This document shows positions 36,157 through 41,486 of a stretch of 64,000 bases of DNA, in pieces. Origin of the DNA: a phage. The position numbers were made by a program, and so were the translations under genes. The DNA is taken from the NCBI GenBank assembly GCA_024682255.1, contig GCA_024682255.1_4716.1. The stretch is one strand, 5' to 3'. The stretch's first letter is position 1; every line of letters begins with the position of its first letter. The notes under the pieces are model-generated. The model did no database searches. It was given only the letters and a program-made list of their open reading frames with translations, and was not told the origin of the DNA.

Positions 36157-36690
36157 TTAAGCTCCTTTCTGTTTTACGGACGATGTTAACCAGGACGATC
36201 TTACCGTGAAACCCTCAGACTCATAGAACGCCTGGGCTTCAGCGTTATCGGCACGAACATCCAGGCCAATAGAATGCCCACCGCACTGGTAAGCGATGTT
36301 ACGTGCTTCGTTCATCAAGGCGTGGCCGATACCACGTCCGCGATATTCGGGTTTTACAACAATCGATGTAACGTCATGAATGCCCATATGGCTCTCTATA
36401 TTCACTTCCAAGAGGCCTACCGGCATCGAAGCGATGGCGTCGATCATAACGACCAACTTTGCAGTGTCCGGTAAACGCTTTTCTAATTCTAAGGCATCGT
36501 ACTCGCGTTTTAAATCGGGGATATTCTCAAACATAAACGTGGTAGCCCAAGCCTCTGATTCTACGTCGTCGAGAATACGGTACAGCTCACGAATCTGTCG
36601 TTTATGTGGGTAAAGGTGTGGATCGGCGGCCGTTGAGGCGATAACGCAATAGAACGGCCGTTCATTAATAACTACTGTTTTGATGCTCAT
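36157..36690 (-). CDS. GNAT family N-acetyltransferase
   Basis: Acetyl-CoA binding motif VKPEYRGRGIGHALMNEA and C-terminal AFYESEGF; 4-nt overlap with upstream gene. Confidence 0.8.
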   Translation of the reverse strand: MSIKTVVINERPFYCVIASTAADPHLYPHKRQIRELYRILDDVESEAWATTFMFENIPDLKREYDALELEKRLPDTAKLVVMIDAIASMPVGLLEVNIESHMGIHDVTSIVVKPEYRGRGIGHALMNEARNIAYQCGGHSIGLDVRADNAEAQAFYESEGFTVRSSWLTSSVKQKGA

Positions 36691-37193
36691 GCTAAAATTC
36701 CCTCATTACCTAACAGTCGATTACGATGACGTCGGTACATTTGACAAAGTGTTGTGATTTGATAATGTTTGTTGTAACGCACCTCGATACGTTTTTGCAC
36801 CTCTTTCCATGGAAGTTTATCGTATTGCCGATAACGATGGATTTCATTTAACATACGAAGACGAGTAGGATCGGTGTTCTTTATCGTCGTGAGCTTCACG
36901 CGTTGGTATCCGCGCTGTAGTCCCGATTCGGAATACGTGACATCAAACTCATCCTGAATGATGGTAATGATCTCCCGCCACCGACGGTTCTCGCCATCAC
37001 GTAAATGGACAACCCGCGATAAGATATCGTTCCGATTACGATGACTCAGTTTGATGTTAAGCATTGAAGCAATCGCGCTAATGGCTCTCTGACTCCGTCC
37101 TAACGCTTCACCTATTTCTTTCGATGTCATGACGCCCGCGTTTCGGCGTATGAATGCGATTTCGGTTGTTGTGTATTCTTTACCTGCTGCCAT
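36687..37193 (-). CDS. Myb/SANT-like HTH protein, paralog 6 of tandem array
   Basis: HTH repeat TSKEIGEALGRSQRAISAI plus two W..I...I..EF repeats. Confidence 0.65.
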   Translation of the reverse strand: MAAGKEYTTTEIAFIRRNAGVMTSKEIGEALGRSQRAISAIASMLNIKLSHRNRNDILSRVVHLRDGENRRWREIITIIQDEFDVTYSESGLQRGYQRVKLTTIKNTDPTRLRMLNEIHRYRQYDKLPWKEVQKRIEVRYNKHYQITTLCQMYRRHRNRLLGNEGILA

Positions 37194-37657
37194 TTCTTAC
37201 CACGTGTGTTATAATAGTAACGCTGACAAAGATGTGTGTGACGATACTCCCGTTTGAACTCGACGCTAATGATGCGAGCAACTTCTCTCCAGTTAACCCC
37301 TTCACGTCGAAGTGCTGTAATACGGTCTGAAATTTTGCACCATTCATCTGGGTCGTATCGACGTAGCTTAAGTCGTCGTATTACGGAGGCGACGCTCGCT
37401 CTCGATCGGCCAAGATGATTTGACAGCTGTTTAACCGAGTATCTGTGGATATTGTCACGAATATAGGAAATCTCGTTGTTCGTATATGCCTCATTGGTTC
37501 TCGACGAAGGGAACAGCATATACAACTTATTCTTAATCGCGCTTTCTGTGCGTTGAAATACAGCAGCCAGCTCACTAACCGGTGGTCTGGGTATCTGGTC
37601 CGCGTAATTCTCGAGGCGTGAGAGTTCCTCATCTGTCCAGCGACGGTATTTGCGCAT
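37127..37657 (-). CDS. Myb/SANT-like HTH protein, paralog 5
   Basis: Start at ATG 37657 with GGAG RBS; repeats RWTDEELSRL...VSELAAVFQRTESAIKNKL and YSVKQLSNHLGRSRASV. Confidence 0.65.
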   Translation of the reverse strand: MRKYRRWTDEELSRLENYADQIPRPPVSELAAVFQRTESAIKNKLYMLFPSSRTNEAYTNNEISYIRDNIHRYSVKQLSNHLGRSRASVASVIRRLKLRRYDPDEWCKISDRITALRREGVNWREVARIISVEFKREYRHTHLCQRYYYNTRGKKWQQVKNTQQPKSHSYAETRAS

Positions 37658-38132
37658 AGGCAGCTCCTTTGTTTTTCGTGTAGTAACACCAACGTTGATA
37701 CAACGCATGTTTATTCGTTGTAATCCCAAATTTAACAACAACGTCGTAGGTAATAACATCCCAATTTTGGGTGACGTTAAGTCGTTCCGCGATAAACGCG
37801 ATAATCGCTTCCCGTTCTTGCTTGGTGAGCGCACGACGAATTCCGTTAAGCCGTATAAACTGACGAACCGAGTCATACGAACGGTTTAAATCGTACGCAA
37901 TCTCCCGCAGCGATTTTTGTCTGATTACCGACTTGATGTATGCGCGTTCTTCTTCCGTGTACGGCCGATGCTTTTGACGTTGACGTATTCCCAAACGCCC
38001 CAGACGCGCGTCGACGCTGGCGCGTGTTCGTCCTGTCCGTTGCGCAATTTCATCAATCGTCATCGACGTGTTCAAATACAGATGCGTAACATCTTTCAGC
38101 TCGTCGTCACGCCACGGTTGAGATCGTCCCAT
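37629..38132 (-). CDS. Myb/SANT-like HTH protein, paralog 4
   Basis: Repeats WRDDELKDV...IDEIAQRTGRTRASVDARL and YTEEERAYI...LREIAYDLNRSYDSV. Confidence 0.7.
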   Translation of the reverse strand: MGRSQPWRDDELKDVTHLYLNTSMTIDEIAQRTGRTRASVDARLGRLGIRQRQKHRPYTEEERAYIKSVIRQKSLREIAYDLNRSYDSVRQFIRLNGIRRALTKQEREAIIAFIAERLNVTQNWDVITYDVVVKFGITTNKHALYQRWCYYTKNKGAAYAQIPSLDR

Positions 38133-39091: not shown

Positions 39092-39103
39092 AGCGCCACC
39101 CCA

Positions 39104-39424
39104 TCAACGTCTTACTTTAAGCGGTATTCTGTTTCGAAAACAATAACACCGGATGGCGTGTACGCTACGATTCATTATTTCAGCGATTTCATTTAGGCTA
39201 TGCTTCTTTGCAAGCATAGCAACCCGGGTTCTTTCTTCTGGTGTGTAAACTCCCCCACGAGGAGGTAGGTCACCTCGTCGTTTCCTCAACTTGAGGTAAC
39301 GTGCGCGAATAGAACACGGTGTCCGATCCATGCAACGCGCTATTTCTTTATAGCTCGCTTTTGGTGATGTGCTAAGAATAAGTAGCAATGCTTCGTCTTC
39401 TTTATCCGTCCAACGTTTACCCAT
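39104..39424 (-). CDS. Myb/SANT-like HTH protein, paralog 1 (two repeats)
   Basis: Repeats [13 protein letters not shown]...[22 protein letters not shown] and [12 protein letters not shown]...[15 protein letters not shown]; overlaps ligase stop. Confidence 0.7.
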
Positions 39425-41486
39425 CTTTTCTATTCTCCTTAACTTTATCGATCATCGAAATCAAAATACCGATACTTTCTTCTTCGTTATCTGTTACATC
39501 CCAGTCTCGGATAACGGGAATCCCCAACGCTTCAGCTTTCGCAAGTTTACTGCCGGGATTACTACCACAGACAAGAACCGTTGTGTTTTTACTTACACCG
39601 CTTGTGATTGTGGCCCCCAAGGTCGCTAAACGTGTAGCGAGCTGATTTCTATCGATATCGTTGAAACTTCCCGTGATAACGACACGTGTATCTAATAACG
39701 GTAACTGATTCATATCGCGTTCCTTAACTGGAGCTGGCGTTACACCGACATCGTACAACAGATCGAAGATATATCCACGATTTGCTTTATCGTAGATGTA
39801 CGTTAAGATCTGATCGGCTGTGATCTCGCCAACACCATCAATGGCGAGTAAGCTTTCTTTATCAGCAGCTAAAAAGCTATCCACGGTCTTAAATGCGTTA
39901 GCAAGATCGCGTGCCGTGCTTTTACCCACTGTAAGAATCCCTAACCCGTAAATGAAACGTGCTAGCGTAGTCTCCTTGGATTTCTGGATAGCGTCGATAA
40001 CCTTGAAGGCGCTGTAATCTGTAAACCCATCCAGCTGGCTAACCTGCTCACGAGTTAACAGATAGAGGTCGACGGCTGATTGCACCAACCCGCAGTTGTA
40101 GACCTGTTCCAAGAACCGTTCGCCAACACCTTCGATGTCCATGACGTCACGACTTACCCAATGAATAAGACGCGCTACCGCTTGGTCAGGACAAGTTCCG
40201 GTTGCAGGACAGCGCCAACGCGCTTCATTTTCCTTTTTCGTTAATGCCGTCCCGCAGGTTGGACAATGGGTTGGAAAAATGATTTCTTTTCTTTCCTCGC
40301 CGGGACGCACACTCACGATTTGAGGAATGACGTCACCAGCACGACGAATAACAACATAATCACCGACGCACACACCTAACCGATTTATTTCGGCTTCGTT
40401 GTGCAACGTGATGTTGCTTATCGTTGTACCCCCAACGAACACCGGTTCAACGCGAGCCACGGGTGTGATGCTTCCTGTTCGACCAACCTGAAAATCAACA
40501 TCGAGTAGCCGGGTGGCTTTTTCCTGCGCGGGGAATTTCCATGCCCGCGCCCAGCGCGGTGCACGAGACGTTGCGCCGAGCTTCTCCTGCATCGCAACAT
40601 CATTCAGTTTTATTACCATACCGTCAATATCAAACAAGCGCTTCTCACGCCATGTAAGCATGTCACGATACACCACAATCAACTCTTCTGTCCCCGTGGC
40701 GATATACGATTCGTTATATAGACCTAACCCTAACGCGGCAACAAACCCCATTTTTGATCCCTGCGTCGCAAACGTGTAGGTGTCATCACCGTCCACGAAA
40801 ACATCGTAGGGACAGAACAACAAACGACGTTTTGCGACGGTTTGCGGATCCAAACGTCGTAACGTACCTGATGCCGCGTTACGCGGATTTACGTACGGTT
40901 TTTCATTGTTTGCAACGAGTTCTGTGTTCAAGAGTTCAAAGGCGTAGTGCGGCATCAACACTTCACCACGAACTTCGATTTTCTGCGGTGTTGATTCCCC
41001 CATTCTCAATTGTGGAAAGACGCCCATTACCGTACGGATATTCGACGTAACATCTTCGCCCTGAACACCGTCCCCACGAGTTACCGCACGTTGCAACAAA
41101 CCATCCTCGTAATGAATCGCGATCGCTAACCCATCGTATTTGGGTTCGATCAAGTATTCGAGTGTGTCTTCTGCGACCCCTAAGGTTTTTGCGATGGACT
41201 CCGTCCAATTCCGCAACTCTTCTTCACTGAACAGGTTATCCAAAGACATCATCGGAGACGGATGCTTCACGGTCTCAAAACCATCGACCGGCGTACCTAC
41301 ACGTCGGGTTGGGCTGTTAAGTGAAACCTGGTCAGGATGCTGCGCTTCATATTCCCGTATCGTTCTCACCATGTTATCGTATTCTTCATCGGTATGTTTC
41401 GGTTCCGCTTTAACATGGTAATAGTAATCAGCTTCAAGGATTGTATCGATAAGTTTCAGATAGTCTGCTGTGGTGGTGATTATCAT
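39417..41486 (-). CDS. ligA: NAD-dependent DNA ligase (LigA family)
   Basis: Adenylation motif EPKYDGLAI; C4 zinc finger CPTCGTAL...RCPATGTCP; C-terminal BRCT-like region; near-collinear with E. coli LigA. Confidence 0.9.

Follow-up and report, generated by a model that had tools for sequence, protein, structure and literature searches.

Six neighbouring genes, G1 to G6, were analysed in a 64,000-nucleotide stretch of phage DNA (GenBank assembly GCA_024682255.1, contig GCA_024682255.1_4716.1), and this whole stretch is called the window in this work. The six genes are true paralogs that encode chains of helix-turn-helix (HTH) modules. They are located between ligA, which encodes an NAD-dependent DNA ligase, and a GNAT acetyltransferase gene. 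The paralogy, the fold as modelled, the homology to protein D5 of phage T5, the conservation, the purifying selection, and the cassette mosaic of the array are established here. We consider it fairly probable that the array encodes six early, D5-like, basic multi-HTH proteins that bind double-stranded DNA with different recognition helices. That G1 to G6 bind DNA, with what sequence specificity, at which targets, and in what biological role, is inferred in this work.

The 2.7 kb array exhibits 95.5% nucleotide identity to Escherichia phage vB_EcoM_Goslar. Goslar is a Goslarvirus of 237 kb, a nucleus-forming jumbo phage under Chimalliviridae that infects E. coli. G1 to G6 correspond to Goslar gp119 to gp114 in the same order, where RefSeq names one of the six a 'SANT/Myb domain-containing protein' and the other five a 'hypothetical protein'. 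Neither the domain family nor its prototype D5 is new, and the published Goslar genome already contains the genes without comment on them. The six-gene D5-like array, its A/B/C modularity, its conservation at variable copy number, and the exchange of G1 to G5 as a block appear to be new. The terms "transcription factor" and "DNA-binding" are never used in a review of nucleus-forming jumbo phages (PMC12908238), therefore no such regulator has apparently been described for these phages.

Paralogy, module order and homology to D5

The similarity among the six proteins is far beyond chance. G3 and G4 match each other with a blastp E-value of 1e-25, most other pairs match at 1e-7 to 1e-12, and the closest paralog of G2 is G1 (39%). 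A hidden Markov model (HMM) of the six paralogs recovers exactly G1 to G6 among the open reading frames (ORFs) of the window, and the next match has an E-value of 0.09. An earlier reading of this DNA from its letters alone (the sequence-only reading) had described six diverged paralogs of Myb/SANT-like HTH repeats, and that description is borne out.

Three module types (A, B, and C) were identified in the alignments, in the orders shown in Table 1. The AlphaFold models of G3 and G6 (predicted local distance difference test scores of 84 and 79) each consist of three consecutive three-helix bundles. The predicted template modelling score is low (0.49), which is expected because the modules are flexibly linked. 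In the models, helices 2 and 3 of the three-helix bundle form an HTH, the arrangement by which Myb/SANT domains are recognised. The tryptophan triad of Myb is not present in the sequences and alignments, where module A retains the first tryptophan only, module B none, and module C the pattern W...F...(W/Y).

Pfam searches with the six proteins gave HTH-type matches only. G1 passes the gathering thresholds of Myb_DNA-binding (PF00249; 34.0 versus 24.4 bits) and Myb_DNA-bind_6 (PF13921; 33.5 versus 22.9 bits). G2 to G6 are below the Pfam Myb gathering thresholds, with best values of 21.3, 17.7, and 16.8 bits. G2 to G4 pass Sigma70_r4_2 as a local HTH match, and their local Sigma70_r4_2 or r4 matches score 34.4 bits (G2), 27.8 bits (G3), and 26.7 bits (G4). 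A sigma factor was considered and rejected, as the matches are local to the region 4 HTH, region 2 or 3 was not matched, and the scores with the sigma models of NCBIfam fall well short of the cut-offs. Among PDB sequences, the best match of the family profile is to Cbp2 (2LVS) at 8e-9 over modules A and B, and c-Myb R1R2R3 (1H88) is matched at 2e-6. The matches from structure searches include Tc3 transposase, Reb1, c-Myb repeats, and SNAPc4.

Strong basicity is common to the six proteins, whose isoelectric points are 9.7-10.5 and whose net charges are +11 to +17. This basicity fits nucleic-acid binding and excludes a role as DNA mimics, which the sequence-only reading had offered as one possibility. 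DNA-mimic anti-restriction proteins require an acidic surface, and the charge found here is the opposite. The recognition helices are 19-23% identical between paralogs and 85-91% identical within orthologue groups. They are among the least conserved parts between paralogs, whereas helix 2 and the following turn are the best conserved (28-71% identity). Since the recognition helices vary between paralogs and are fixed in orthologues, each paralog would be expected to have its own binding specificity. DNA binding is the best-supported activity predicted for G1 to G6.

All six proteins match PHROG 323, 'transcriptional regulator, D5-like', with E-values of 8e-10 to 2e-18. The namesake of this family is D5 of phage T5 (T5.118, 255 amino acids), which itself scores 1e-71. 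The six-paralog HMM detects T5 D5 directly (E-value of 8e-8), and the comparison by hhalign of the family profile with an alignment of 27 D5 homologues gave a probability of 94.7% and an E-value of 6e-8. D5 itself strings together about four HTH modules, and its range of Pfam matches is that of G1 to G6. The PHROG 323 matches span profile positions ~92-270 of 319 only. The full-length D5 architecture (~250 amino acids, four HTH modules, and the N-terminal half) is not found in G1 to G6. As judged from these alignments, the membership of G1 to G6 in the D5 family is partial, where the two-module core is homologous and the architecture differs. The sequence-only reading had named assignment to a well-characterised single-function family as an outcome that would speak against it. 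Such an assignment was obtained in part, as all six proteins fall into PHROG 323 with T5 D5 as its prototype.

Exchange and distribution of the array

The ratio of nonsynonymous to synonymous substitution rates (dN/dS) is 0.05-0.28 for the array genes where the synonymous rate (dS) is measurable, which is similar to the neighbouring genes. All six genes are therefore maintained as functional genes. G5, for example, is 98% identical to its Goslar counterpart with a dN/dS of 0.07. The positions of the array are orthologous across lineages but diverge at very different rates. For G6, the identity is 88-100% whichever lineage is compared. The G1 position is the most variable, with at least four alleles that are 47-58% identical among lineages. 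In the window and in Goslar, G1 is truncated to 106 amino acids and lacks module C, compared with 152-157 amino acids with module C elsewhere.

The positions were also compared with one Goslar-like metagenome contig, L004. The proteins encoded by ligA, G6, and the GNAT gene exhibit 93%, 90%, and 90% amino acid identity, whereas G1 to G5 exhibit 38-54% and their dS is saturated. The nucleotide identity is 87-98% across ligA, 13-65% over ~39400-37200, and 83-93% from G6 on. The drop is located exactly between the stop of ligA and the start of G6. These sharp borders imply that G1 to G5 were exchanged as a block by recombination in the conserved flanks and did not evolve rapidly in place. G1 to G5 are a cassette that is swapped wholesale between otherwise near-identical phages, while G6 and the GNAT gene are fixed. 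G6 behaves as the invariant core of the array. A functional link between G6 and GNAT is possible from the 4-nucleotide overlap of their genes, which is retained across all lineages in the gene tables.

Among cultured phages, a tblastn search with G4 identified Goslar only. A scan of IMG/VR with G6 identified Goslar and one near-identical contig only. The array is present between ligA and the GNAT gene in every Goslar-like metagenome contig that was examined (237-248 kb), at five to six copies. Contigs L008-L012 have six copies, and contigs L002-L005 have five copies without a G2 orthologue. The array is an accessory feature of the Goslar lineage and not a core feature of Chimalliviridae. The sequence-only reading had called a six-fold expansion unusual, and had named the routine presence of the array in a known phage genus as an outcome that would speak against it. 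This outcome was obtained in part, as the array is a standing feature of Goslarvirus (gp114-gp119) and of the Goslar-like contigs. The accessory nature of the array, like the exchange of the cassette, is an argument that G1 to G5, at least, face something variable.

A related explanation is that the set faces the host or its immunity. The proteins would then have host DNA or host factors in the cytoplasm as their targets, for example to silence host or defence genes or to occupy nucleic-acid sensors, and the cassette diversity would reflect an arms race with sensors of D5-like HTH proteins. This explanation overlaps the reading that we favour and differs mainly in the target. The exchange of G1 to G5 between flanks that are 90-93% identical, the number of G1 alleles, and the confinement of the array to Goslar-like phages fit it. 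So do the early transcripts described below, which appear before the phage nucleus exists, and the toxicity of T5 D5 to E. coli together with its recognition by a type IX retron through the HTH. However, known models of defence and anti-defence systems gave no match, and PADLOC returned a weak HTH match only. The saturated dS over the swapped block points to recombination with a distant lineage rather than to demonstrable positive selection, and degradation of the host chromosome is implied in E. coli chimallivirus infection (PMC12908238), which would limit the time for action on host DNA. We regard this explanation as rather unlikely.

The variable site next to ligA also bears on a selfish origin, in which the genes would be remnants of homing endonucleases or domesticated DNA-binding domains, either as debris of selfish elements or as site-protecting 'immunity' proteins. 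The HTH modules match PHROGs of phage HNH endonucleases (phrog_8446 at 3.5e-9, phrog_1891 at 6.7e-8, and phrog_7545 at 4e-7), and in P0035, a distant homologue, the modules are joined to a C-terminal part that is GIY-YIG/T5orf172-like by eye only. The site next to ligA is a hotspot of insertion and deletion. Against this origin, the endonuclease PHROGs match the HTH part only, and the six proteins lack a Pfam nuclease domain and are too short to hold one. Synteny is kept across the lineages, the dN/dS given above shows that the genes are not decaying, and their best-scoring family is D5-like. We find this origin very improbable.

The gene behind this hotspot is gp120 of Goslar, which encodes 235 amino acids without a Pfam or PHROG match and is located between ligA and G1 (L001:10743-11450; L012:4323-5030 in a metagenome relative). 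A gp120-like gene is absent from the window (junction at 39417-39424) and from contigs L004 and L011. This presence or absence by lineage indicates that the junction of ligA and G1 is the site where insertions and deletions occur. The third copy of the array is broken into a 97-amino-acid ORF and a second frame in one metagenome contig of 247 kb (L002:8500-9011), either as a pseudogene with a frameshift or through an error of assembly.

The A-B unit itself is very widespread, with 13,478 cluster representatives matched at an E-value of 1e-3 or lower and 2,699 at 1e-10 or lower. Many of the matching proteins (P0165-P0311) belong to a large, uncharacterised class of 'poly-HTH' chains of 300-900 amino acids with four to nine matched A-B stretches per chain. 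One poly-HTH protein of 794 amino acids (L018:8001-10385) is encoded in a bacterial chromosome and adjoins a sigma-70-like gene of 727 amino acids. A 192 kb contig encodes a single distant homologue of 268 amino acids with Myb-like modules at both ends (L006:8001-8807). Its neighbours are ArdA, LPD11/LPD29, and YafQ-toxin genes, a setting that looks more like plasmid or conjugative-element DNA than like phage DNA.

Early expression and the proposed role

The expression of the array was read from published RNA sequencing of Goslar 30 min into infection, in which the nuclear-shell protein ChmA was either knocked down or not (Armbruster et al., Supplementary Table 2, bioRxiv 10.1101/2023.09.20.558163). 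The orthologues gp114-gp119 are 90-100% identical to the proteins of the window. Under the knock-down, late Goslar genes fall by 3-7 log2 units, whereas gp106-gp159 change by about -0.6 to +1.4 and gp114-gp121 by -0.2 to +0.5 log2 units. The authors of that study equate the insensitive set with the early programme that is transcribed in the early infection vesicle. The insensitivity of gp114-gp119 therefore places them in the early class, in the same long minus-strand block as the ligase gene. The six genes thus share with D5-like proteins the early expression that the Goslar data indicate. A scan for sigma-70 promoters and terminators within the array gave no more matches than shuffled sequence.

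In the favoured reading, the array is transcribed early within a long block that is read by the injected virion RNA polymerase. Its products are small, very basic 'beads-on-a-string' proteins of two or three Myb/GcrA/homeodomain-like three-helix HTH modules. Each protein would bind duplex DNA as a monomer, with the third helix of each module placed into successive major grooves. The six proteins may read six different extended sites or DNA features because their recognition helices differ between paralogs and are conserved within orthologues. Jointly they may act as D5-like modulators of the timing of transcription, of replication, or of the silencing of host or rival DNA. The swapping of G1 to G5 fits a function that faces the host or is exposed to immunity. 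T5 D5 is itself sensed by a retron via its HTH. Detection of D5-like proteins by host immunity is thus on record as a pressure under which such diversification could arise.

The early class also bears on a role in packaging, in which the six would be small-terminase-like or other packaging-recognition proteins. G2 matches Pfam Terminase_5 at an E-value of 0.004, below the gathering score. The matches are to generic HTH, however, and an oligomerisation domain is missing, the Goslar transcripts are early and not late, and the array is not conserved across Chimalliviridae. Such a role is extremely improbable.

A further explanation is an architectural one, where largely non-specific coating by redundant paralogs organises or protects the replicating phage DNA. 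D5 is abundant and cooperative. The high positive charge, the homology to D5, and the adjacency to a ligase gene as in T5 are in line with coating. The raw read counts are modest, however, at ~180-480 for the array genes compared with ~2100-2500 for the ligase gene (bioRxiv 10.1101/2023.09.20.558163). Distinct recognition helices in each paralog under purifying selection are also unexpected for redundant non-specific binders. We consider coating quite improbable.

Several observations weigh against the favoured reading of early D5-like regulators with different targets. The match by hhalign to D5 covers only modules A and B against D5 residues 135-235. The N-terminal half of D5 (Pfam matches at 32-68 and 71-104) has no counterpart and module C is unaligned. 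The match to PHROG 323 is not fully independent, as this family may contain Goslar proteins. The whole-chain Foldseek search placed multi-HTH DNA binders, including c-Myb, Reb1, and SNAPc4, on top, with weak E-values (best 0.075) that we attribute to the flexible linkage of the modules. The array is not present near the ligase genes of Serratia phage Moabite and Ralstonia phage RSL2, which encode the closest ligases among cultured phages. Its absence beside the ligases of these other Chimalliviridae rules it out as a core factor of transcription or replication across the family. The wholesale replacement of G1 to G5 would be hard to tolerate if their targets were conserved phage promoters. A candidate target motif was not found in the window, where no repeated intergenic 9-mer stands out. 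The motif ATATTAC, which we take to be the core of the early promoter of PhiKZ, occurs 8 times in the window versus 10.6 expected and is not enriched. Non-coding tandem arrays were not found in the window, where the only long tandem repeat is located inside a gene. Published results on DNA binding, localisation, or knock-down were not found for the six proteins or their Goslar orthologues. A literature search for Goslar gp114-gp119 returned nothing, and the mentions of 'gp119' concern other phages.

If the favoured reading is true, the six proteins are candidates for controlling the switch from vesicle to nucleus or for acting on host or rival DNA. A stronger version of it, which we judge clearly unlikely, is that they are the first set of sequence-specific DNA-binding regulators to be recognised in a Chimalliviridae phage. 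They would form a swappable early D5-like 'specificity cassette' whose diversity is driven by host sensors of D5-type HTH proteins, type IX retrons among them, or by the competition of co-infecting jumbo phages, with G6 and GNAT as the invariant core. The practical value is modest pending the binding targets, and the domain family itself is very common.

Gene layout and comparison with known systems

The coordinates of the array and its flanking genes are shown in Table 1. The six minus-strand ORFs of the sequence-only reading were all found at their positions, and the identities of both flanking genes were confirmed by Pfam and PHROG. The proposal that the array forms one block with ligA and the GNAT gene also stands, as the genes are co-directional and tightly packed. 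It was claimed that the genes are linked by overlaps of 4-67 nucleotides, and this is correct for five of the seven junctions. From ligA to the GNAT gene, the distances are -8 (ligA/G1), +12 (G1/G2), +13 (G2/G3), -26 (G3/G4), -29 (G4/G5), -67 (G5/G6), and -4 (G6/GNAT) nucleotides, thus G1/G2 and G2/G3 are separated by short gaps. The overlap of 67 nucleotides with G6 is formed by the part of G5 that encodes its basic tail.

Table 1. Features of the HTH array and its flanking genes, with positions in the window.
Feature	Position	Strand	Description
ligA, NAD-dependent DNA ligase	39417..41486	-	Pfam DNA_ligase_aden 1e-80; phrog_3869 9e-188
G1	39104..39424	-	106 aa (amino acids); modules A-B; Goslar gp119; phrog_323 7e-18
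G2	38624..39091	-	155 aa; modules A-B-C; Goslar gp118; phrog_323 5.5e-18
G3	38107..38610	-	167 aa; GTG start; modules A-B-C; Goslar gp117
G4	37629..38132	-	167 aa; modules A-B-C; Goslar gp116; phrog_323 4e-18
G5	37127..37657	-	176 aa; modules A-B-C and basic tail; Goslar gp115; phrog_323 1.9e-18
G6	36687..37193	-	168 aa; modules B-C-C'; Goslar gp114; phrog_323 8e-10
GNAT acetyltransferase	36157..36690	-	Pfam Acetyltransf_1 5.5e-15; conserved downstream anchor
Exchangeable divergent block G1-G5	37200..39400	.	borders at ligA 3' end and G6 5' end

The ligase is full-length, with OB, Zn, HHH, and BRCT domains in Pfam besides DNA_ligase_aden. Its gene is the conserved upstream anchor of the array, with 92-93% amino acid identity in Goslar and L004. 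The RimI-like score of the GNAT protein stays below the cut-off. The open frame of G5 extends to 37876, and the start at 37657 matches Goslar gp115 and the metagenome protein P0002. Goslar gp114 (L001:8001-8444) is annotated with 147 amino acids, which is 21 codons shorter than the G6 ORF. The additional N-terminal residues of G6 are shared by every lineage, with P0018 and P0022, for example, annotated at 169 amino acids, and they make up helix 1 of module B as modelled by AlphaFold. Although its ribosome-binding site is weak, the longer start is for these reasons probably the right one.

Nearly all genes at ~12000-60000 of the window are on the minus strand, and the GC skew is steadily negative there. 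The counterpart of this block in Goslar is gp106-gp159, all of which fall into the early class that the ChmA knock-down leaves unchanged. The long tandem repeat of the window (18683-19434; period of 120/360 nucleotides, 2-4 copies, 68-78% identity) is coding and is located within an ORF of 1324 amino acids (17269-21243, minus strand), which is possibly a fibre or structural protein.

A Dam-like DNA methyltransferase gene (PF02086, MethyltransfD12) is located a few genes upstream of ligA in all metagenomic relatives examined (L012:170-997, L011:904-1728, and L004:3384-4211). The window (~42768-42778, between genes of 138 and 106 amino acids) and Goslar lack it. GcrA-type HTH domains prefer DNA marked with N6-methyladenine. 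The sequence-only reading had suggested a link of the array to a downstream methyltransferase gene, and no support was found for a link to this downstream gene, which encodes a class-I methyltransferase.

The six proteins were compared with known multi-HTH and related DNA-binding systems. They are similar to c-Myb R1R2R3, Reb1, and SNAPc4 in their tandem three-helix repeats with short linkers. However, the regular tryptophan triad of c-Myb and its relatives is mostly missing in the phage proteins, five of which are under the Pfam Myb thresholds. The six proteins are similar to the archaeal CRISPR-repeat-binding proteins Cbp1 and Cbp2, which are also small and basic with only two to three HTH modules and basic linkers. 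Cbp1 and Cbp2 bind extended DNA sites as monomers. The systems differ in that the window has no CRISPR array or non-coding DNA repeat array as a target, and the assignment to Cbp1 was rejected as NCBIfam HTH_Cbp1 scores 19.7 bits versus a cut-off of 140.

The fold of the N-terminal DNA-binding domain of Caulobacter GcrA (PDB 5YIU) is shared by the modelled modules. GcrA has one such module compared with two to three here, and its C-terminal domain that interacts with sigma-70 is missing from the six proteins. GcrA was rejected because PF07750 is matched at E-values of 0.06-0.07 (14 versus 26.9 bits) over profile positions 2-60 of 155 only. Tc1/mariner transposases and Pax proteins have a bipartite HTH, but the six proteins lack a catalytic domain and nearby terminal inverted repeats.

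The closest known system is D5 of phage T5. It is a basic DNA-binding protein, as is predicted for G1 to G6, and the early D5 gene is located directly downstream of an NAD-dependent ligase gene as it is here. In T5, the D5 gene directly follows ligA/ligB, and its start lies within the end of ligB, part of the split NAD-ligase gene (L015:15365-18078). The order of a ligase gene followed by a D5-like gene in T5 and in the unrelated Goslar lineage represents two independent cases only. The T5 ligase is 31% identical to the Goslar-type ligase, an ordinary divergence among LigA proteins, and a recent joint transfer of the ligase and D5 genes from a T5-like phage is not supported. The systems differ in that D5 is a single four-module protein encoded once per genome, whereas six genes here encode proteins of 106-176 amino acids with two to three modules. 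Module C is a more canonical Myb-like unit (W..IA...RT..Q..RW) that does not align to D5.

According to its annotation in the T5 record, D5 binds DNA, is required for DNA replication and late transcription, and takes part in shut-off. This annotation and the primary reference, McCorquodale (1979) as cited in PMC12630848, are the sources for the binding of double-stranded DNA by D5 and for its part in shutting off early genes. In E. coli, D5 is toxic, and by way of its HTH it sets off retron-Kva2, which is a retron of type IX (bioRxiv 10.64898/2026.07.11.737809). D5 was also considered as the DNA-binding trigger of DRT4 in T5, and this was rejected as the trigger is ORF55 instead. The action of D5 as a retron trigger provides a concrete reason for the diversification and cassette exchange of such genes, and the link to D5 provides the uncharacterised gene block of Goslar with a testable prototype.

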